A stretch of DNA of 29,963 nt from an uncultured Planctomycetia bacterium (GCA_964489855.1 CAZBAQ010000001.1:1-29963); one strand, 5' to 3'; shown: positions 2,166-13,927, numbered from the stretch's first letter. The notes: a model not told the origin generated them from the letters alone. Translations and numbers: made by a program.

Positions 2166-2249
2166 TGGCTGCGCTAAGCTGTATAACCTATAATTCTATC
2201 TCTTAACACAAGCAAGCCTATTATATAGAACATAGCGCCAAATATCAAG
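2166..2249 (-). repeat. Cassette distal end ('L2' arm), copy 1; degenerate direct repeat of 3491-3573
   Basis: Shared blocks with near-identical spacing (plus strand): TG(G/A)CTGCGCTAAGCTGT, +15 nt ATCTCTTA, +13/14 nt ATTATA, +15 nt AATATCAAG. Confidence 0.85.
2220..2248 (-). promoter_or_regulatory. Sigma70-type promoter facing tRNA-Leu
   Basis: Minus strand TTGATA (2248-2243), 17 nt, TATAAT (2225-2220); same hexamers and spacing at 3544-3572. Confidence 0.8.
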
Positions 2250-2271
2250 TATAACAGGATGTCCTTTTCGA

Positions 2272-3324
2272 TCAATCGACCATCTTGTAATAAGCACCTC
2301 TGCCTTTACCTACAAGTTTGATTAACTTAGAATCAACAAGCTTTGAGATTTCTTTAAGTATAGCCTGACGCGAAATCTTAAACATCACGCGCAAGTCTTT
2401 ATTGGCGATTTTTCCTTTTTCTTTTATTTTCTCCAGGATTTGTATCTGTTTTTTGGTTAACTCTATTTGTCCGGCTATGTCAGCATCTCTAGTAATCCCA
2501 AGTTTAATAATAACCTCTTTGACTTTATCTATCGAATAAAGAACCCCGTCACTAAAATACTCAAGCCATTTTGTAATGTCTCCTTTTGAATCTTGAACTG
2601 TCTTTAAAGCGGAATAATAGTTCTGCCGGTCGCTATCATAATAGTCATCAAGGGCAAAAAATCGCCTATGATCAAAACCGCTTTTATAAAGCGCGAGGCT
2701 CGCTAAAAACCTGGCAACTCTGCCATTACCGTCTATAAAAGGATGAATCCGCGCAATTTCGTAATGAATGATCCCGGCTGAAATTACAGGATTTATATCT
2801 TTAATTTTACCCGAGTTGAGCCATGCCAGGAATCCCTCAATAAGCCTTGGTACTTCTTGAGTTTTCGGCAGCATATATTCGACAACCTCCTTAAATTGTG
2901 TTCCGTCAAATATCCTTTTGCCGACAAATACCTGTCTATCCCTTAAAGCGCCGCAATCCTTCTCGTCTTTGAGGGTGCCTTTTGTAATTGTTTTATGGAT
3001 AGATAAAATAAGTTTGATATCCGGCTTTCTTGTAGCATATTTTGGAATGGCATCAAGCGCTTCCAGATAGTTTAAAACTTCCTGTTTATCTTTGACTGAG
3101 GCAACAACCTCTTTATGCTCACTAAGAGCTTTAACCTGTTCCAAAGTAAGTTTATTACCTTCGATGCTTGTTGAAGAATGCGCATTGTGGATGCGGGCTT
3201 CTTTTTTAAAACCCATCTCCCACTTTGGGATAAGACTGGCATGCTTTATAATCTCTCTCTCGGTCATTATCCGGGAGATATTATTAAGAATTTTATCTGT
3301 AATAGTGTATATTGGTTTCAGCAT
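2272..3324 (-). CDS. Fic-domain protein with N-terminal inhibitory motif and C-terminal winged HTH
   Basis: Fic signature HPFIDGNGRVAR; inhibitory (S/T)xxxE(G/N) motif in SSTSIEGN; C-terminal wHTH-like segment (ANKDLRVMFKISRQAILKEISKLVDSKLIKLVGKGRGAYY). Confidence 0.92.
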   Translation of the reverse strand: MLKPIYTITDKILNNISRIMTEREIIKHASLIPKWEMGFKKEARIHNAHSSTSIEGNKLTLEQVKALSEHKEVVASVKDKQEVLNYLEALDAIPKYATRKPDIKLILSIHKTITKGTLKDEKDCGALRDRQVFVGKRIFDGTQFKEVVEYMLPKTQEVPRLIEGFLAWLNSGKIKDINPVISAGIIHYEIARIHPFIDGNGRVARFLASLALYKSGFDHRRFFALDDYYDSDRQNYYSALKTVQDSKGDITKWLEYFSDGVLYSIDKVKEVIIKLGITRDADIAGQIELTKKQIQILEKIKEKGKIANKDLRVMFKISRQAILKEISKLVDSKLIKLVGKGRGAYYKMVD

Positions 3325-3330
3325 GGTTCT

Positions 3331-3372
3331 ATTATAACAAATGACAACATAAATGACAACTAAAATGACAAC
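3331..3372 (-). promoter_or_regulatory. fic promoter (probably leaderless) overlapped by three 10-bp direct repeats
   Basis: Minus strand TTGTCA (3359-3354), 17 nt, TATAAT (3336-3331), 6 nt, ATG with no Shine-Dalgarno; AAATGACAAC at 3339, 3351 and 3363 (12-bp period). Confidence 0.75.
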
Positions 3373-3382
3373 CGGAAAGAAA

Positions 3383-3492
3383 AAAATAACACCCTAACCC
3401 TTTGACACATAAAGAGATAAAAAATACCCTGACTAGCATTGCCAATCAGGGTTAATCTTATCTCTCCATCTGGAATTTGAGAGATTACTGTG
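3383..3492 (-). repeat. Cassette proximal end ('R1' arm), copy 1; 110-bp direct repeat of 5418-5527
   Basis: Hand alignment gives about 8 substitutions and a compensating 1-nt indel pair over 110 bp; the junction-proximal 35 bp are identical (3458-3492 = 5493-5527). Confidence 0.95.
3417..3452 (-). terminator. Intrinsic terminator in R1 copy 1
   Basis: Minus strand ACCCTGATTGGC-AAT-GCTAGTCAGGGT followed by ATTTTTTAT; the two stem changes relative to copy 2 both give G-U pairs on this strand. Confidence 0.85.
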
Positions 3493-3573
3493 ACTGCGCT
3501 AAGCTGTCACAGTGTTAAGAGCATCTCTTACTTTACAGTCCTTATTATAGTAAGAAATTTCGAGAATATCAAG
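3491..3573 (-). repeat. Cassette distal end ('L2' arm), copy 2, including promoter TTGATA-17-TATAAT (3572-3544)
   Basis: Same conserved blocks and spacing as 2166-2249. Confidence 0.85.
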
Positions 3574-3709
3574 AGAATAGAACGATTTAGAGATAAAGTT
3601 ATCGTGGTTTTCGCGATATCCGTCATATTATCCGATTAAATACGATCGATTAAATAGTGGGCATTTTAGAGATAGAGAGATAGATTGCGCTGTAGTAATA
3701 TATAGGTCT

Positions 3710-3746
3710 GAGATTGTTTCGGTCGACTTCGTCGGCCTCCAATGAC
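3710..3746. repeat. REP-like palindromic element
   Basis: GAGATTG...GGTCGAC-TTC-GTCGGCC...CAATGAC; central hairpin at 3721-3737; resembles from memory a widespread GAGATTGC...CAATGAC intergenic repeat. Confidence 0.45.
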
Positions 3747-3922
3747 AAGTTTTAAAAGATCGTTCTAAACCTTTGACTTTACAAGACATAGGTAAGACCC
3801 ACTTACATTTCTGTAATTGGGCCTTACCTTTTATCTCGAACTTACCCACTCCGTAATCTCTATTCTCACAGCGGGTTAGAACACATCGAAAATGTGTGAA
3901 GGAATCTAAAACAAAGGGCTGG

Positions 3923-4972
3923 TTATTTATTCAAATATAATGTCTGAGTGGGATAAGCAAACTCGATGTCCCTGGCTCCGAATTCCTTCTTGATGGCAAA
4001 ATTGATCTCCTGTTGAATATCCATATATTTATTATAATCCCTGCTCATAACATAATAGACAACTTCAAATACCAGGCTAAAATCTCCATAGGAAAAAAAG
4101 TGCGCGCGGTCAAAGGTTGTATCCTTAACACCCTTGATAATCTTTTCAATTATCCCGGGCATGACTTTTAACTGCTCAAGAGAAGTCTGATACGTAACGC
4201 CAAGTTTAAAAACAACTCTTCTTTTTCCCATCCTTTTATAGTTGCGCACCCGGGAGCTGGTAAGGTCGGTATTAGAAAGGATCACTTGCTCTCCGCCAAG
4301 GCTGCGGATTCGAGTAGTCTTAATTCCAATATGTTCAATCGTACCCAAATATTCATCTAATATAATAAAATCTCCAACTTCAAATGGACGGTCAAATAAT
4401 ATACAAAAATAACTAAATAAGTCTCCTAATATTGCCTGAGCTGCTAAAGCTATGGCTATGCCTCCAATGCCTAAGCCGGCAATAATAGCTGATATTTTGA
4501 ATCCCAGGTTGTCTAAAAACACAACAATCGCCAAGGCCCATACAGCAACCCTGAGCACTGCTAAAATTCCCGTTAGACTGCGATCCGATGTTACGTCTTT
4601 ACCTCTCTTTGTAAAATAAAGATTAAATCCGTAACCCATAAGAGATAAGGCTAAGCGCGCTGCAAATACCATAAGAATTGCCATCCCTATAATATCAATG
4701 ATCTTATTTAAGAGAGAATGTAAACTCAAAGTATTTACACTCAAATAGAAGGCGCCAAAATAGGCTAAAGGCAAAATCAGTCTTTGAATAATCCTGAGAA
4801 GAAAATCATCAATGGTGGTAGCAGTCTTTTCTGCCCATTTTTTTAAGCTCCTGAGAATAAAATGCTGAAAAATCTTAATCATGCCAAAAGCCGTTAAAAA
4901 TAGGCCAACAAATATCAGATAATCAGCAATGCGGTTTCCTAAATAGACCCTTTCGATAATACCCTGAAACAT
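3923..4972 (-). CDS. mscS: Small-conductance mechanosensitive channel (MscS family)
   Basis: N-terminal TM helices, GLGIGGIAIALAAQ pore helix, DRPFEVGDFI, GTIEHIGIKTTRIRS, V..N..K motifs; SD AGGAGG upstream. Confidence 0.93.
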   Translation of the reverse strand: MFQGIIERVYLGNRIADYLIFVGLFLTAFGMIKIFQHFILRSLKKWAEKTATTIDDFLLRIIQRLILPLAYFGAFYLSVNTLSLHSLLNKIIDIIGMAILMVFAARLALSLMGYGFNLYFTKRGKDVTSDRSLTGILAVLRVAVWALAIVVFLDNLGFKISAIIAGLGIGGIAIALAAQAILGDLFSYFCILFDRPFEVGDFIILDEYLGTIEHIGIKTTRIRSLGGEQVILSNTDLTSSRVRNYKRMGKRRVVFKLGVTYQTSLEQLKVMPGIIEKIIKGVKDTTFDRAHFFSYGDFSLVFEVVYYVMSRDYNKYMDIQQEINFAIKKEFGARDIEFAYPTQTLYLNK

Positions 4973-5053
4973 CTTTTATCCTCCTATTTCTGCCTCTTTT
5001 GAAAAGACTGGCGGAGAAGTAAGAAATTCTACCGAGTGTGCCCTCTTATAAAC

Positions 5054-5082
5054 ATGCTACGACACAACTCTTTTATTGTCAA
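5054..5082 (-). promoter_or_regulatory. Sigma70-type promoter of mscS
   Basis: Minus strand TTGACA (5082-5077), 17 nt, TAGCAT (5059-5054). Confidence 0.6.
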
Positions 5083-5417
5083 GAATTACAGATTATAACT
5101 TTTCAATATAAGAATAAGAAATTTATATCCTTCCCTTCATGGCTCTATCCCATATTCTTGCGGCAATAGATATGATCTCTTTTTCCCGCTCCTTTAGAGA
5201 AAGTTTAGAGCTCGGTTTAAACCTACCAAATTCCCAGTTAATGCCTAAAATATCACTCAAATTATTCGAAATACAGACGATAATGCCATTAACTAGCAAG
5301 CATTAACTACGAGGCGATTCCGAGATAAAGAGATAGGCTAGCGAGATTTATCCGACTATTTTAGACGAACCTAGGGGAAAATAACATTACAAGATCCAAA
5401 ACAAATAATTGCTGCAG

Positions 5418-5527
5418 AAAATAATGCCCTAACCCTTTGACACCCAAAGACATAAAAAATACCCTGATTAGCATCGCTAATCAGGGCTTAATTTATCTCT
5501 CCATCTGGAATTTGAGAGATTACTGTG
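5418..5527 (-). repeat. Cassette proximal end ('R1' arm), copy 2, abutting the tRNA-Gln CCA
   Basis: Direct repeat of 3383-3492. Confidence 0.95.
5452..5487 (-). terminator. Intrinsic terminator downstream of tRNA-Gln (R1 copy 2)
   Basis: Minus strand CCCTGATTAGC-GAT-GCTAATCAGGG perfect 11-bp stem followed by TATTTTTTAT. Confidence 0.88.
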
Positions 5528-5599
5528 GCTGGAGGAGATGGATTCGAACCATCACGACGAGTTCCAGAGACTCGCATCCTACCATTAGATGATCCTCCA
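5526..5599 (-). tRNA. tRNA-Gln (anticodon CTG), CCA encoded
   Basis: TGGAGGA/TCCTCCA-G-CCA acceptor stem, anticodon arm CGAGT-CTCTGGA-ACTCG, T-arm GATGG-TTCGAAT-CCATC. Confidence 0.97.
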
Positions 5600-8497: not shown

Positions 8498-9583
8498 CTA
8501 GCTGAGAGCTGAAAGCTCATTAACTATCTCATCCTCTGTAGGGACTCCGCCGCCTGAGCGACCGTAAAAATGAACTGGTTTTTTGCACTCTATGCTGAGT
8601 TTGACATCCTCTACCATCTGACCGCAGCTCATCTCTACTACTAAAAATGATTTGACTTTTTCAGCTATCCTTTTTAATTCTTTCTCTGGAAATGGCCACA
8701 GGCTTATTGGCCTGACGAGTCCTATCTTTTTCCCCTCAATGCGTAATTTCTCAACAACGTTCCTTGAGATCCTGCTGGTCGTGCCATACGCCACCACCAT
8801 GAGATCACTGTCATCACCATATAAAATTTCACAGCGGACTTCTTTATCTTTAATCTCAGCGTATTTCTTCTGCAGCTTCCTGTTAAACATCTCCAGGCTC
8901 CCATCTTCCAGCAAAAGCGACCGGATCTTTCTCGGCTCTCTGCCCTTACATCCATCCAAAACCCATTCTTTTCTTATTTGGGATTTGGGATTTGGGATTT
9001 GGGATTTAAGTTCTACTGGCTCCATCATCTGCCCCAGGATACCGTCTCCCAATATCATCACCGGTGTCCTGTATTTATCCGCCAGATCAAACGAAAGCAT
9101 TGTCAGCTCCGCTATCTCCTGTAAAGATGCCGGCGCCAAAACTATCTGATGATAATCACCATGACCTCCGCCTTTTGTCGCCTGAAAATAATCGCTTTGG
9201 CTCGGAGCTATATTGCCAAGGCCTGGTCCTCCCCTCATCATATTTACTATTACCCCGGGAAGCTCGCAGCCTGCAAGATATGATATACCCTCCTGCTTAA
9301 GACTTATGCCAGGACTTGAAGAAGAAGTCATTGCCCTCGTGCCCCTGAGCGACGCGCCAAAGACCATATTTATAGCTGATATCTCGCTCTCTGCCTGGAT
9401 AAATACTCCGCCCACCTCTGGCATGTGCCTCGACATATAAGCCGGCAGTTCATTCTGCGGCGTAATAGGATATCCTGCATAAAACCTGCACCCTGCCATT
9501 ATAGCAGCCTCTGCCAAAATCTCATTACCGCACATCAGAACTTTTTCAGTTTGGATTTTGGAATTTGGAATTTGGAATTTCAT
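8498..9583 (-). CDS. vorB: 2-oxoacid:ferredoxin oxidoreductase alpha subunit (VorB-like); start at ATG 9583
   Basis: MCGNE..AEAAI.AGC, GYPITPQ, QAESE, TSSSSPG, RGGPGLG; the ATG overlaps the upstream TGA (ATGA). Confidence 0.9.
   Translation of the reverse strand: MKFQIPNSKIQTEKVLMCGNEILAEAAIMAGCRFYAGYPITPQNELPAYMSRHMPEVGGVFIQAESEISAINMVFGASLRGTRAMTSSSSPGISLKQEGISYLAGCELPGVIVNMMRGGPGLGNIAPSQSDYFQATKGGGHGDYHQIVLAPASLQEIAELTMLSFDLADKYRTPVMILGDGILGQMMEPVELKSQIPNPKSQIRKEWVLDGCKGREPRKIRSLLLEDGSLEMFNRKLQKKYAEIKDKEVRCEILYGDDSDLMVVAYGTTSRISRNVVEKLRIEGKKIGLVRPISLWPFPEKELKRIAEKVKSFLVVEMSCGQMVEDVKLSIECKKPVHFYGRSGGGVPTEDEIVNELSALS
8976..9007. repeat. Heptamer tandem repeat (TTTGGGA)x4 inside vorB
   Basis: Four perfect units at 8977-9004 plus TTT; encodes KSQIPNPKSQI. 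Confidence 0.95.
9550..9580. repeat. Heptamer tandem repeat (TTTGGAW)x4 directly after the vorB start codon
   Basis: TTTGGAT TTTGGAA TTTGGAA TTTGGAA TTT; encodes KFQIPNSKIQ. Confidence 0.93.
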
Positions 9584-9786
9584 CTGTATACCTCTATACA
9601 CATATCAGGACATACGATCGCGCAAAAAGAACATCCCGTGCACTTCTTATCTTTATCCAAAAATAAAACCGGATGTATGCCTCTTTTATTAATAAAATCC
9701 TCTGATACAATACACCCCTTCGGGCAATATACCACGCAGAGCCTGCAGCCTTTGCATCTTTCTTTATTGATCTCTATTTTCGGCAT
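9580..9786 (-). CDS. 2x[4Fe-4S] ferredoxin-like delta subunit (start ATG 9786)
   Basis: CKGCRLCVVYCP and CTGCSFCAIVCP motifs. Confidence 0.92.
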   Translation of the reverse strand: MPKIEINKERCKGCRLCVVYCPKGCIVSEDFINKRGIHPVLFLDKDKKCTGCSFCAIVCPDMCIEVYR

Positions 9787-11681
9787 GATAATATAGTGTC
9801 TCTTATCTTTTCTGCTGACAGACCACACTTATCAAGCAGGATCTCTCTTTTTCCATGCTCGATAAATCTATCCGGAAGCCCTATAGTCTTTATTGTAGCA
9901 CTTTTCGGCACCTTATCAATAATAGATTCCAGAACAAAAGAACCAAATCCGCCGCAGGCCACGCCTTCCTCTACCGTAAAGAGCTTTCCTGTCTTGGAAA
10001 CCGACTCCAATATGAGCTCCAGATCTAATGGCTTGATGAACCTTGCGTTTATAACTTCACAATCCACACCTTCGTTTAAAAGCAGTTCTGCTGTCTTTAA
10101 AGAAACCGGAGCCATATAGCCCAAGCTCAATATCGTTGCGTCCTTGCCTTCCTTTAGAATTTCTGCTTTACCTAAAGAAATAGGAAGACTGGTCGTGGTC
10201 GAGGCGAAACCTCGACCAGTTTGTGGTCGAGGTTTCGCCTCGACCAAAGGATAACTCCTGCCGCGAGGATATCTCATTGCAATCGGACCCTTATTATAAG
10301 AAAGCGCGAATCTAAACATCTCCTTGAATTCCTCTTCATCCTTCGGAGCCATGACTATCATATTCGGCATATGTCTTAAATACGCGATATCAAATACCCC
10401 GTGATGCGTAGGCCCATCTTCTCCCACAATGCCTGCGCGGTCCAGCATAAATGTCACGTTGAGGTTCTGGAGACAAACGTCGTGTATTATCTGGTCGTAA
10501 GAACGCTGCAAGAATGTGGAATATATTGCCACGACTGGCTTCAGGCCAGCCCTTGCCAGGCCTGCGGCAAAACCTACTGCGTGCTGCTCTGCCATTCCAA
10601 CATCAAAAAATCTATCGGGAAAGACCTTTGCAAATCTATCCAGGCCTGTGCCTTCAGGCATGGCAGCTGTTATGGCCACGATCCTTTTATCCTTTTCCGC
10701 AGCGTCAATAACCCCCTCGCTAAACACGCTTGTAAAATCCTTCTGCAAGGACACCTTCTCGCCTGTCTCAACATTAAATGAACCCACGCCGTGGAATTTC
10801 TCAGGTATTTTTTCCGCGTAAGAATAGCCCTTGCCTTTTTTTGTGACAAGGTGCAGCAAAACTGGCGAATCCATATCAATGATGTTTTTCAATGTGGAGA
10901 CTACTGAGCGTATATCATGACCATCTATGGGACCAAAATACTTGAACCCTAATTCTTCAAAAAGCATACCAGGAACCAAAAGATTCTTAAGTCCTTCTTC
11001 TAGGCGCCTGGCTGAACGTATTATCCTGAAACCAAAACGCGGCACGCGCTTTAAAAGACCTTCTATGTCCTTCCTGATCCTATTGTAAATAGGCGCGCTT
11101 ATGATCCTGTTCAGGTATTTACTTAAGGCGCCCACGCTCCTGGATATACTCATCTCGTTGTCGTTGAGTATGACAAGTATTTTTTTGCGAAGATGCCCGG
11201 CATGGTTAAGTGCCTCGAATGCCATGCCTCCGCCTAAAGACGCATCGCCTATGACAGCGATTACCCTGTGTAATTTTCCTTCCAGGTCTCTTGCGGCAGC
11301 CATACCCAATGCAGTAGAAATAGAGGTGGACCCATGACCTGTTGTAAATACATCAAATTCGCTTTCAAATCTATTGGGAAAACCGCTCAGGCCGCCCAGC
11401 TGGCGCAGCGTAGAAAACCTGTCTTTTCTGCCGGTCAACAACTTATGCGCGTACGTCTGATGACCCACATCCCATATGATAATGTCTTCGGGCGCGTTCA
11501 AAGAATAATGCATCCCCAATATGAGTTCCACGGCCCCAAGGCTTGACGCAAGATGTCCGCCTGAAGAAGAAACTGTTTTTACAATAGTCTCTCTTATCTC
11601 CTGCGCCAGGCCAGACAATTCATCCATGCTCAGTTTTTTTAAATCAGAAGGGTGATTTATTTTTTCTAATAATCCCGGCAT
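9774..11681 (-). CDS. dxs: 1-deoxy-D-xylulose-5-phosphate synthase, with an in-frame palindrome insertion
   Basis: GGHLASSLG, DVGHQ.Y.HK, IGDASL, LNDNEMSIS, GEDGPTHHG, RYPRG. Confidence 0.97.
   Translation of the reverse strand: MPGLLEKINHPSDLKKLSMDELSGLAQEIRETIVKTVSSSGGHLASSLGAVELILGMHYSLNAPEDIIIWDVGHQTYAHKLLTGRKDRFSTLRQLGGLSGFPNRFESEFDVFTTGHGSTSISTALGMAAARDLEGKLHRVIAVIGDASLGGGMAFEALNHAGHLRKKILVILNDNEMSISRSVGALSKYLNRIISAPIYNRIRKDIEGLLKRVPRFGFRIIRSARRLEEGLKNLLVPGMLFEELGFKYFGPIDGHDIRSVVSTLKNIIDMDSPVLLHLVTKKGKGYSYAEKIPEKFHGVGSFNVETGEKVSLQKDFTSVFSEGVIDAAEKDKRIVAITAAMPEGTGLDRFAKVFPDRFFDVGMAEQHAVGFAAGLARAGLKPVVAIYSTFLQRSYDQIIHDVCLQNLNVTFMLDRAGIVGEDGPTHHGVFDIAYLRHMPNMIVMAPKDEEEFKEMFRFALSYNKGPIAMRYPRGRSYPLVEAKPRPQTGRGFASTTTSLPISLGKAEILKEGKDATILSLGYMAPVSLKTAELLLNEGVDCEVINARFIKPLDLELILESVSKTGKLFTVEEGVACGGFGSFVLESIIDKVPKSATIKTIGLPDRFIEHGKREILLDKCGLSAEKIRDTILSCRK
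10196..10246. repeat. Inverted doublet of a 23-bp palindrome, in-frame within dxs (51 bp)
   Basis: TGGTCGAGG-CGAAA-CCTCGACCA, GTTTG, TGGTCGAGG-TTTCG-CCTCGACCA. Confidence 0.95.
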
Positions 11682-11682
11682 A

Positions 11683-12483
11683 TTAAGATCTTCTCTCTAA
11701 AATTAAATCCGCGATCCCTGAAAGCCTGTTGGCGTTATTCCCGAAAATACTGAGATGCGACTTCGCCCTTTTGTTCAGGAGTTCTGCCATTTTCCTCACG
11801 TGTTCTTTCCCGTATACCCTGACGTAGCCATCCTTATCGATCAAATCATCTATGAGCTGGAACGTAAAACCAATGTGTCTGCCAAAATCATTGATCGCGT
11901 CTATCTTTTTTTTGCCAGCGCCTTTAAACACGCATCCTGCCTTTAAGGCCGCCTCGAAAAGCGCGCCTGTCTTCTTAGCCGCAATATAATCCAGATCTCT
12001 TTTTTTCTTATTTGCCCCCTCCATATCTACGACCTGGCCGCCTATAGTGCCGCGGCTGCCTACTGCCATAGAGATATCCCTGAGGATGTCCAGATTGCCC
12101 GCGCCTGAAAGCAGCTCGAACCCCATGGTGAGAAGCGCATCGCCTGCTAAAAGCGCTATTTCCTCGTTGAATTTTTTATGACAACTGGCCCTGCCCCGCC
12201 TGTAGTCATCATTGTCCATACACGGAAGGTCATCATGTATAAGCGTATATGTATGTATGAGTTCTATGGCGCACGCGATTGGCACGATCGAAGCGCCCTT
12301 GCCCCCGCACGCCTCAAAACTCGCGATGGTCATGACAGGCCTTATCCTTTTGCCGCCTGAAAATACTGCGTACCGCATTGCCCTGTGGATAGATTCTGGC
12401 TTTTCTTTTGTCGGCGGCAAACACCTATCCAGCGCTTTATCAATGACCTTCTTCTTGTTTGCAATATATTTTTTTATATCCAT
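11683..12483 (-). CDS. ispA: Polyprenyl (farnesyl/geranyl) diphosphate synthase (start ATG 12483)
   Basis: GGKRIRP, LIHDDLPCMDNDDYRRG, KTGALF, FQLIDD; xseB-ispA-dxs synteny. Confidence 0.92.
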   Translation of the reverse strand: MDIKKYIANKKKVIDKALDRCLPPTKEKPESIHRAMRYAVFSGGKRIRPVMTIASFEACGGKGASIVPIACAIELIHTYTLIHDDLPCMDNDDYRRGRASCHKKFNEEIALLAGDALLTMGFELLSGAGNLDILRDISMAVGSRGTIGGQVVDMEGANKKKRDLDYIAAKKTGALFEAALKAGCVFKGAGKKKIDAINDFGRHIGFTFQLIDDLIDKDGYVRVYGKEHVRKMAELLNKRAKSHLSIFGNNANRLSGIADLILERRS

Positions 12484-12500
12484 ATCCTTGTGACTCTGCC

Positions 12501-12523
12501 TGTTCAAGGCTAAGCCTTGAACA
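12501..12523. repeat. 23-bp palindrome, single copy between xseB and ispA
   Basis: TGTTCAAGGC-TAA-GCCTTGAACA, identical to 23433-23455. Confidence 0.95.
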
Positions 12524-12533
12524 GCTAAGACTG

Positions 12534-12755
12534 CTATTCTTTGAAAGGTTCAAGTTCTATCTTGTCGCCCTTTTTAACAAGTATCTCGACCTTGCGTTTC
12601 GTCTCATCCAGGCGTTTTCTGCAAAGACGCAGGAGCTTCACACCTTCTTCGTATTTCTTCAATGACTCGTCAAGCGGCATCTGACCGGTTTCCAGATCAT
12701 CTGCGATCGCTTCCAGCTTATTCATCATATCTTCAAATTTTAATTCCTTTGCCAT
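12534..12755 (-). CDS. xseB: Exodeoxyribonuclease VII small subunit
   Basis: FE..M.KLE.I...LE.G.M.LDESL..YEEG pattern. Confidence 0.95.
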   Translation of the reverse strand: MAKELKFEDMMNKLEAIADDLETGQMPLDESLKKYEEGVKLLRLCRKRLDETKRKVEILVKKGDKIELEPFKE

Positions 12756-12766
12756 AATAGCCCCCT

Positions 12767-13927
12767 TTATTCGATCTCCTCCACCCTGCTCTTAAAACTT
12801 CCTTTTGAAAGCCTTGTCTCGACCATATCTCCTTTTTTAAGGATCTTCGTATCCTTGAGCACTTTTTTCTCAGGCAGCTTGAAATTAATGCTGTATCCCC
12901 TGCCTAAAATACCCAAAGGACTCAATATCCCTATCTTCTCAGAGATAGATTTAAAATTTTCCTCTTTTAATTCAATATAATGTTTGAATCGCAGACTCAG
13001 ACCCTGTTCTACATCATCGAGACGCTGCTCGTACTGTTTTATAATGTCCAGGGGATAATCCTTGAGCCTTTTTTCAATATTGTCCAGTTTATCGACTAGC
13101 TCGCTCTTTTTCGCAATGACCCTCTCTGCGGCAACAGACGGCGTTGGCGCCCTTAAATCCGCTACAAAATCGCTGATCGTCCAATCTATCTCATGACCCA
13201 CTGCGCTTATAATAGGTAGTTTTGAGTTGTGTATTGCCCGCGCCACTACCTCTTCATTAAATGCCCATAAATCCTCCAGGCTCCCGCCGCCCCTCCCGAT
13301 TATTATCACGTCCACATTGCCGAGCTTATTAAACTCGTCTATTGCCCTCGCTATCTCTTCCTTTGCGCCTTCGCCCTGAACCTTTACAGGATTTATAATG
13401 ACCTCGACGTTCGAAAATCTTCTGTTCAAAACATGAAGCATATCTCTGATCGCCGCGCCTGTTGGAGAAGTGACTATGCCGATCCTGTCCGGAAGCATCG
13501 GTATCGCAGCCTTTCTAGAATCATCAAAAAGTCCTTCCTTAAAAAGTTTTTCCTTTAATTGTTCAAACGCGAGCTGTAACGCGCCCACGCCCTTTGGCTC
13601 CATCCTTGATATATTCAGCTGATACTGGCCGCGTTTTTCATACACGCCTACCCTGCCAAAACATAACGCCTGCATGCCGTCTTTTATCTCAAACTTTACC
13701 TTCTCATTGTATCCTTTAAAAAATGTACATTTTAATTCGCCTCTCTCGTCTTTTAATGTAAAATAAAAATGACCTGAGGAGTGGGCAACGAAATTCGATA
13801 TCTCTCCCTCCACCCACACGGTTGGAAAAGCTGATTCCAGGACCAGCTTTATACCAGCGGTCAACTCGCTTACCTTGTATATGTATCTTTCCTTTTTACT
13901 GGTGGCTGTATCAGGAGTGGTCTTCAA
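12767..13927 (-). CDS. xseA: Exodeoxyribonuclease VII large subunit
   Basis: WVEGEISNF, SGHFYFTLKD, GIVTSPTGAAIRD, GRGGGSLEDLWAFNEE, SAVGHE.D, APTPS. Confidence 0.96.
   Translation of the reverse strand: MKTTPDTATSKKERYIYKVSELTAGIKLVLESAFPTVWVEGEISNFVAHSSGHFYFTLKDERGELKCTFFKGYNEKVKFEIKDGMQALCFGRVGVYEKRGQYQLNISRMEPKGVGALQLAFEQLKEKLFKEGLFDDSRKAAIPMLPDRIGIVTSPTGAAIRDMLHVLNRRFSNVEVIINPVKVQGEGAKEEIARAIDEFNKLGNVDVIIIGRGGGSLEDLWAFNEEVVARAIHNSKLPIISAVGHEIDWTISDFVADLRAPTPSVAAERVIAKKSELVDKLDNIEKRLKDYPLDIIKQYEQRLDDVEQGLSLRFKHYIELKEENFKSISEKIGILSPLGILGRGYSINFKLPEKKVLKDTKILKKGDMVETRLSKGSFKSRVEEIE

Follow-up and report, generated by a model that had tools for sequence, protein, structure and literature searches.

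How do two small units with unrelated genes come to lie in tandem between a tRNA-Gln and a tRNA-Leu gene? The question is raised by a 29,963-nt stretch of DNA (GCA_964489855.1 CAZBAQ010000001.1:1-29963, hereafter the window) from a metagenome-assembled genome (MAG) of 1.12 Mb in 228 contigs, 83% complete, whose host we judge to be a Candidatus Omnitrophota bacterium. A 2035-bp unit carrying mscS (unit 1) and a 1325-bp unit carrying fic (unit 2) stand there between tRNA-Gln(CTG) and tRNA-Leu(GAG). All features of this array are on the minus strand, and positions are those of the whole window. The 3.4-kb segment is probably an accretion array whose attachment site is the 3' CCA end of tRNA-Gln(CTG), built by elements that integrate by means of a large serine recombinase (LSR).

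Three junctions with one core

Three junctions, named J1 to J3 from the tRNA-Gln side, share a 6-bp core, which reads CAGCCA at J1 (5531-5526), CAGTCA at J2 (3496-3491) and CAGCCA at J3 (2171-2166). Two kinds of arm, R1 and L2, meet at these cores:

5599-5526, minus strand: tRNA-Gln(CTG), found by ARAGORN and as an Rfam tRNA (57 bits); left half of attL
5418..5531, minus strand: R1a, putative recombinase-proximal element end, with core, inverted repeat, terminator and box
3491..3600, minus strand: L2a, putative distal end of unit 1, with an outward promoter TTGATA-17-TATAAT (3572-3544), ending in the J2 core CAGTCA
3383..3496, minus strand: R1b, left end of unit 2, with a predicted terminator at 3452-3426
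2166..2275, minus strand: L2b, putative distal end of unit 2, with an outward promoter TTGATA-17-TATAAT (2248-2220), ending in the J3 core CAGCCA
2153-2071, minus strand: tRNA-Leu(GAG), found by ARAGORN and Rfam; right side of the original attB

The last 6 nt of tRNA-Gln (5531-5526) are themselves the J1 core, and a 12-nt spacer (2165-2154) separates J3 from tRNA-Leu. A repeat search returned R1 as two 114-nt copies, 5531-5418 (R1a) and 3496-3383 (R1b), which are 89% identical, offset by 2035 nt and fully identical over the ~33 nt just past the core. The end of L2 was returned as a 17-nt repeat (3507-3491 and 2182-2166; 94% identical, offset 1325 nt). Over ~90 nt, L2a and L2b agree at 65 of 99 alignment columns, with an alignment score of 20.5 compared with -2.5 +/- 3.8 (maximum 10.5) for 500 shuffles. 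An original prediction made from the sequence alone had placed the three junctions, their 6-bp cores, R1 and a degenerate L2 at these positions, and all of them are confirmed, with R1 measured at 114 nt.

The 6-bp identity CAGCCA links tRNA-Gln to R1 and L2 to the spacer. L2b with the spacer 2165-2154 constitutes attR, and the succession L2/core/R1 has the form of attP. The locus thus holds an attL, an attP-like junction and an attR, as predicted for serial site-specific integration at the CCA end of tRNA-Gln, and this structure, together with the empty sites described below, upholds that reading. J2 is spanned with zero differences by a Logan unitig of run X2 (3386-3615), and J3 by Logan unitigs of runs X1 and X3 (lake-water metagenomes), so the array is not an assembly artefact, although the spanning runs may include the sample behind the MAG assembly. 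A genome search found no R1 or L2 in the MAG outside the window, and the two R1 copies here are its only ones.

Relatives and the empty site

If the units were inserted, what did the locus look like before? The flanking genes, gltX-pilZ on one side and response regulator (RR)-GGDEF/histidine kinase (HK) genes on the other, are syntenic across the family. In two related genera the orthologous locus gltX-pilZ-tRNA-Gln-tRNA-Leu-RR/GGDEF-HK is empty, with 1 nt (G009) or 72 nt (G003) between the tRNAs. The expected succession of tRNA-Gln and tRNA-Leu at an empty site is therefore found, but the exact 12-nt spacer foreseen for it was not seen. In a further relative (G014), 102 nt between the tRNAs hold an unrelated motif of ~80 nt; synteny could be checked there on the gltX-pilZ side only, as the contig ends just past tRNA-Leu. 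A genome of the same genus (G001) has a different element, with an LSR of 26% identity and no R1, after an identical tRNA-Gln.

R1 matches were obtained in 16 of the 36 same-family genomes searched, and the loci retrieved from these also contain L2. The junction tRNA-Gln/CAGCCA/R1 was found again in several genera, and L2/CAGCCA/R1 junctions are common. The arms are 85-94% identical across genera whose GltX is 69-79% identical. A pattern scan of metagenomes then yielded 55 contigs with 59 R1 copies starting at the core. What precedes these copies is L2 (28), tRNA-Gln (16), tRNA-Asn (1) or another left arm (14, mostly ending in CAGCCA), and the 6 nt before the R1 arm are CAGCCA in 51/59. Independent scatter of R1 and L2, which would have told against the original prediction, is thus not what is seen.

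The large serine recombinase link

A version of R1 and L2 linked to a recombinase, which the prediction had proposed to look for, exists in a relative (G007). Here an 8.45-kb element stands first after tRNA-Gln and reads tRNA-Gln/CAGCCA/R1, LSR, DUF2924, RND efflux operon, L2/CAGCCA/R1. The LSR has 551 aa with Resolvase, Recombinase and Zn_ribbon_recom domains, and is encoded on the reverse strand with its stop codon ~190 nt beyond R1. It aligns to the catalytic domain of TP901-1 integrase, the catalytic serine being conserved (RKS versus RVS), and to the recombinase and zinc-ribbon region of A118 integrase. Homologues occupy the same position and orientation beyond R1-type arms after tRNA-Gln (G012, 72% identity), tRNA-His (G021, 48%) and tRNA-Glu (G030, 48%), and after these three tRNAs the distance from LSR to arm is ~170-390 nt in a fixed orientation. 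A 39%-identity LSR lies ~490 nt after tRNA-Asn in G036, where no R-type arm was detected, and more distant LSRs (26-43%) follow tRNA-Gln with other arms in G024, G004 and the same-genus G001. DUF2924 partners the LSR in three clades.

Metagenomic R1 copies show how often the recombinase is missing. At least 1.5 kb of downstream sequence is available for 39/59; 7 of these have a full LSR, 1 an LSR cut by the contig end, 4 C-terminal fragments only and 27 none. The LSR-less R1..L2 units measure 1381-5434 bp, and their cargo is of accessory type, comprising toxin-antitoxin pairs, a nucleotidyltransferase, a GDSL lipase, a CDF transporter, patatin, an ABC-F protein, a PLD-like protein and DUF347/EamA. 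C-terminal LSR fragments lie ~190 nt beyond R1 at L033:2374-2634, L117:9715-9810, L132:3289-3384, L141:1519-1767 and L130:2289-2480, some with internal stop codons. They are snapshots of recombinase gene deletion from elements.

In the window, the only open reading frames (ORFs) of the two units are orf58, mscS, orf73 and fic, and tblastn found no LSR remnant beside R1a or R1b, in the whole genome or in the local segment with relaxed settings. Both units therefore lack a recombinase, as had been claimed for them. The non-coding end of the LSR elements is nevertheless still recognizable: homology of R1a to LSR-bearing elements runs on to ~5304-5229, at 84.6% identity with L143 (227 nt) and 73-74% with L131 and L029 (250-300 nt), and this match (227-300 nt) stops near the expected start of the LSR gene. 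Since relatives with the same R1 and L2 ends encode an LSR and the window units do not, the latter are derivatives of LSR elements and not autonomous members, akin to cis-mobilizable elements (CIMEs) or to the pseudo-elements of the staphylococcal cassette chromosome (pseudo-SCC). In common with these, they are bounded by the attL/attR-type ends of an autonomous family (G007, L143) and have no recombination or transfer genes. With LSR elements they share a short att identity with hybrid attL and attR, and a target that is empty in some relatives. The proposal of a new, recombinase-free family did not survive, because autonomous members with the same ends encode an LSR and some units keep fragments of one.

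Could another recombinase make the junctions, the LSR genes being passengers? The 3' ends of tRNA genes are the classical targets of tyrosine integrases, and the MAG encodes two ~295-aa Xer-like recombinases and one 395-aa integrase. The arms termed L3, part of a second arm family of relatives described below, contain a degenerate copy of the tRNA-Gln 3' end that matches at 17 of 23 positions. None of the MAG's three tyrosine recombinases is encoded on the contig of the array, however, the 395-aa integrase being beside tRNA-Pro(GGG) at C23:6574-7249, where it belongs to a separate classical tRNA island unrelated to R1/L2. Wherever the ORFs of a locus were examined, R1 had no tyrosine recombinase as its neighbour, and R1-type arms have LSRs at fixed spacing and orientation instead. 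The identity segment that L2-type arms share with the tRNA is just 6 bp, compared with the displaced tRNA 3' fragment of ~15 nt or more that marks the far end of a tyrosine-integrase island, and there is no dif-like 11-6-11 site. An origin of the junctions from a tyrosine integrase or from host XerC/XerD is thus very improbable.

Element ends as predicted transcription signals

R1 is ordered as core, 5 nt, an inverted repeat (ATCTCTC-12 nt-GAGAGAT), an intrinsic terminator with a 12-bp stem and a T run, and a box, GTGTCAAAGGGTTAGGG. In R1a the inverted repeat is at 5520-5495 and the predicted terminator at 5487-5461, followed by its T run. Where R1b differs from R1a in the stem, pairing is kept, as G-U, on the minus strand only. 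Across 57 distinct R1 copies the changes are likewise mostly G-U or compensatory pairs, with pairing on the tRNA-sense strand only, which argues for a terminator at the RNA level. That the first inverted repeat never varies is in part ascertainment, as the repeat belonged to the search pattern. At the other end, each L2 arm has an 11/12 match to TTGACA-17-TATAAT directed out of the unit (promoter scan). In four relatives (L042, L106, L149, L157) L2 is trimmed so that its promoter directly abuts tRNA-Leu.

These signals suggest how the host could tolerate the array. The R1 terminator would halt tRNA-Gln transcripts and the outward promoter of L2 would restore transcription of tRNA-Leu, which is now presumably driven from L2b. 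At empty sites tRNA-Leu would be co-transcribed with tRNA-Gln, and the R1 and L2 signals would compensate for splitting this transcript. The array (2166-5531) contains 9 occurrences of the heptamer TATCTCT/AGAGATA, where the frequency over the whole window would predict 2.5. They cluster after R1a (5329), before L2a (3589, 3668, 3676) and within R1 and L2, and the heptamer may be the binding site of an accessory protein.

At J2 a full promoter-to-terminator unit is predicted. Its RNA of ~120 nt has a predicted fold of -45.1 kcal/mol (z = -5.5), and the L2/R1 succession is frequent (28/59). Is L2/core/R1 therefore a duplicated small-RNA gene, with an incidental resemblance to a cassette? Half-units stop exactly at the core against tRNA-Gln and tRNA-Leu, empty sites exist, and the same halves bound an LSR element. 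Neither the junction nor the ~80-nt motif of relatives matches a known RNA family in Rfam at E <= 1. A small-RNA origin is accordingly hard to credit, and the junction transcript may be a by-product.

Comparison with known systems

The nearest precedents for an LSR-built array of this kind are the Dehalococcoides ssrA islands, SCCmec composites and tycheposons. SCCmec, pseudo-SCC and SCC composites, which are integrated by the LSRs CcrAB or CcrC at the 3' end of rlmH, also form tandem arrays at the 3' end of a conserved gene with short direct repeats between units. Some SCC units lack ccr and rely on a recombinase in trans, in which they resemble the window units. They differ in host phylum, in having a protein gene rather than a tRNA gene as target, and in size, SCC units being usually 3-60 kb. 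We know of no role in transcription signalling described for SCC ends.

Tandem arrays of LSR islands, integrase-less units among them, are already known beside the 3' end of a small RNA gene from the Dehalococcoides ssrA islands, whose serine recombinases are DsiB and DsiA (McMurdie et al., 2011; PMC3146451). In fifteen of these islands the integration module is missing, and the authors took them for cis-mobilizable elements that had come together by accretion (PMC3146451). The two systems have in common a small genome, a tandem arrangement downstream of a stable-RNA 3' end and a serine integrase of ~540-550 aa on the reverse strand beside attL. The Dehalococcoides target is the tmRNA T-loop, whereas here it is the CCA end of tRNA-Gln (in relatives tRNA-His, tRNA-Glu and probably tRNA-Asn); the repeat is 20 bp there and 6 bp here; and the partner genes there encode a small serine recombinase, RecF-like and ParB-like proteins, as opposed to DUF2924. 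Unlike those islands, the units here go down to 1.3-2 kb with a single gene, and their ends bear a terminator and an outward promoter.

Streptococcal CIMEs are likewise bounded by functional-looking attL and attR sites, have no recombination or transfer genes and stand in tandem with autonomous relatives (PMC5704250). The streptococcal integrative conjugative and integrative mobilizable element systems, however, use mostly tyrosine integrases, identity segments of tens of bp and conjugative helpers (PMC5704250), and no such helpers were seen here. The tycheposons of Prochlorococcus also inhabit streamlined genomes, where successive integrations at tRNAs push older elements inward (Hackl et al., bioRxiv 10.1101/2020.12.28.424599). 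They leave degenerate remnants, fragmented integrases and extra partial tRNAs, and a minority carry LSRs (bioRxiv 10.1101/2020.12.28.424599). They differ in their tyrosine recombinases (910/937), replication modules and partial-tRNA flanks, in place of which the present elements have a 6-bp core and conserved non-tRNA arms.

The original prediction had also called the units integron-like. As in integrons, small, co-oriented and mostly single-gene units with unrelated cargo are arrayed at one site. The locus lacks every defining integron feature, with no IntI, attI, attC or Pc promoter, and its cargo genes have promoter-like sites of their own. Integron units end in a single folded attC, whereas these end in two unlike arms, R1 and L2. 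What remains is a loose analogy. The array is of a known kind, that of LSR accretion islands with recombinase-less units, and what is new is the lineage and the unusually small size of the units. It is distinctive in its tRNA CCA-end target with a 6-bp core, its tiny single-gene units and its signal-replacing ends, with the terminator facing in and the promoter out. A full-text literature search returned no paper tying Omnitrophota to serine recombinases or to these elements, and DUF2924 only in three Wolbachia papers, none of which ties it to these elements.

How the array could have grown

How would such an array be assembled? The LSR would catalyse strand exchange inside the shared 6-bp core CAGCCA, with R1 as the recombinase-proximal end of the element and L2 as the distal end. 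Units without a recombinase would either have lost the LSR module or have been inserted by the LSR of an autonomous relative. Since empty sites differ in what follows the core on its right, attB is probably recognized mainly through its tRNA half; if so, attL would be reusable and arrays could grow from the tRNA side. Newcomers would then enter next to tRNA-Gln and shift older units toward tRNA-Leu. Such re-use of attL would resemble the Ccr and Dsi systems.

Several observations weigh against this account. A canonical LSR accepts no pair of sites other than attP and attB, and insertion at attL time after time would demand a tolerance like that of Ccr or Dsi. The arms also depart from the textbook LSR attP: the conserved inverted repeat is confined to one flank of the core, around which dyad symmetry is weak. 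In a search for the crossover dinucleotide, the best centres fell at core positions 3-4 in two attP forms (9-11/22 matches), were inconsistent in attB and were not significant. The MAG, at 83% completeness in 228 contigs, yielded no Resolvase-domain gene and no tblastn match to a serine recombinase. Four lake metagenome runs gave no excision, circle or empty-site joints, a result without power at ~3x depth and with assembler contigs only. Finally, mscS and fic are widespread in Omnitrophota and also occur in ordinary chromosomal contexts outside arrays, so this cargo is not exclusive to the elements. Two joints returned by the search of the lake metagenome runs have sides of just 20-25 nt and look spurious.

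Is anything here still mobile? The array may instead be a fossil, made of old site-specific insertions that are now fixed and inherited vertically, with ends kept only as a terminator for tRNA-Gln and a promoter for tRNA-Leu. This departs from an active LSR-built array solely on present-day mobility, and we consider it possible, if somewhat doubtful. It would account for the missing LSR and excision joints, the T variant of the J2 core (CAGTCA), the decayed internal junction of unit 1 (see below), the trimming of L2 to a promoter abutting tRNA-Leu, and the presence of the same array at >99% identity in several metagenomes. It sits less easily with the different LSR element after the identical tRNA-Gln of G001, which indicates turnover of content within the genus, or with arms so much better conserved between genera than GltX. 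Internal junctions, moreover, keep both promoter and terminator though they need neither.

Cargo of the two units

Returning to the LSR-built array, what do its units carry, and where did they come from? Their genes and internal remnants are as follows:

5123..5299, minus strand: orf58, a small ORF kept together with mscS, 96% identical in contig L100, with a weak AF2212-like match
3923..4972, minus strand: mscS, small-conductance mechanosensitive channel and cargo of unit 1, with the first, second and third MS_channel domains of Pfam
3835..3847, minus strand: tRNA-Asn-type left-arm remnant, a truncated T-arm copy, GGGTAAGTTCGAG; homology to the mscS unit of contig L160 stops exactly at 3835
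3762..3800, minus strand: weak distal R-arm remnant (model positions 68-106; nhmmer E=0.0018 in a 451-nt search, modest evidence)
2272..3324, minus strand: fic, Fic/DOC protein with a C-terminal winged helix-turn-helix (wHTH)-like domain and cargo of unit 2 (Pfam Fic, 6.5e-21)

A promoter scan placed a promoter-like site for mscS itself at 5082-5054. The orf58-mscS segment recurs at 92-96% DNA identity in contigs L100 and L160, between junctions reading GGGGAGCCA, a copy of the tRNA-Asn 3' end. In the window, homology to this segment stops at 3835, within the tRNA-Asn T-arm copy, and beyond it, at 3800-3762, is the R-arm remnant. Unit 1 thus probably derives from two older units that fused, their internal junction having decayed. 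The L160 locus (8943-13303) is an array of single-gene units, with orf58-mscS (1.76 kb), pyruvate kinase (1.28 kb) and a DAO-type oxidoreductase (1.32 kb), each closing with a degenerate version of the tRNA-Asn 3' end (...GGGGAGCCA). Upstream of the array is a restriction-modification cluster, and no tRNA-Asn gene is present within 20 kb.

The fic promoter, TTGTCA-17-TATAAT at 3359-3331, lies beneath three 12-bp direct repeats of the GTTGTCATTT type (3339-3383). The triple repeat also precedes fic homologues in two further contexts (L103, L104); it thus travels with the gene and is probably an operator, the candidate ligand being the C-terminal wHTH of the Fic protein itself. In L103, fic and its three-repeat promoter are 91% identical to those of unit 2 and directly follow a tmRNA gene, with an 18-nt repeat of the tmRNA 3' end on either side. 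The region L103:1-1880 comprises the tmRNA gene (1-391) and the 1.1-kb fic unit, after which come helix-turn-helix, MazG-like and Schlafen-like helicase/S24 peptidase genes; it looks like a defence islet.

A second arm family with a CAGCCA core was observed at L080:1700-4084 and L029:14067-15064, in which the arm opposite L3, termed R3, has another inverted repeat and terminator. One CopG-type toxin-antitoxin pair is bounded by R3..L3 in L080 and by R1..L3 in G007, so arms and cargo recombine.

Do these recurrences amount to a true cassette system, in which recombinase-less single-gene units are the normal mobile form and a shared LSR exchanges them in trans among tRNA-Gln, tRNA-Asn and tmRNA arrays, as an analogue of integrons? 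The mscS unit, in an array with GGGGAGCCA junctions beside single-gene units of 1.28 and 1.32 kb, and fic directly after tmRNA are what such a system would produce, and so are the mixed arms around the toxin-antitoxin pair and the lack of an LSR in ~70% of R1 units. The arms differ by context, though, so the cargo gene may have moved by homologous recombination or deletion rather than as an intact cassette, and the LSR fragments mark at least some small units as deletion products. Excision of an internal unit would also require an attL x attP-type reaction, which is non-canonical for LSRs, and the ~3x metagenomes hold no circle or excision joints. An all-against-all comparison of cargo gave matches that are mostly one lineage sampled twice, with clear changes of att context for mscS and fic only. 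We regard a true cassette system as unlikely. Its fullest form would be a cassette economy across Omnitrophota, with mostly single-gene units of 1.3-2 kb that a few LSR-bearing helpers excise and re-insert in trans, and with ends serving as standardized "insulators" that set a terminator toward the incoming tRNA transcript and a promoter outward; for this, too, the chances seem slim.

Possible other insertions at tRNA genes

On another contig of the MAG (C64:5210-5498), an R3-type arm with inverted repeat, terminator and a GTAAAGACTTAGGG box comes immediately after tRNA-Asn(GTT), and the contig ends ~210 nt further on. This is probably a second integrated element of the MAG, cut by the assembly.

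Relatives also have a conserved motif of ~75-90 nt directly abutting tRNA-Gln and tRNA-Leu genes, made up of a GAAG-loop hairpin, TGATCCTGA, a variable hairpin and GAAGGACC. It was seen at L030:4764-4843 and 4926-4993, L034:867-955 and 5094-5183, L043:1744-1836, L048:244-328, L050:2835-2908 and L143:3997-4072. The motif occurs on either side of a tRNA, on both sides of one tRNA in L030, and always faces outward. Nothing in Rfam matches it, and this MAG lacks it. Either a small insertion targeting the symmetry of the acceptor stem or a structured RNA could explain it.

What the array means for Omnitrophota

The locus is the first worked example we have found of gene-content turnover in Omnitrophota, an uncultured phylum with small genomes, and marks the gap between tRNA-Gln and tRNA-Leu as a hot spot for LSR elements and their stripped-down derivatives. 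It offers candidate sets of LSR, attP and attB aimed at tRNA CCA ends through a very short core, and LSRs attract practical interest as integration tools. The ends of the elements point to a host-sparing design, in which the terminator and promoter disrupted by insertion would be replaced by those of the newcomer. Should the small units turn out to be mobilized in trans, such arrays would stand beside integrons as their serine-recombinase counterpart.

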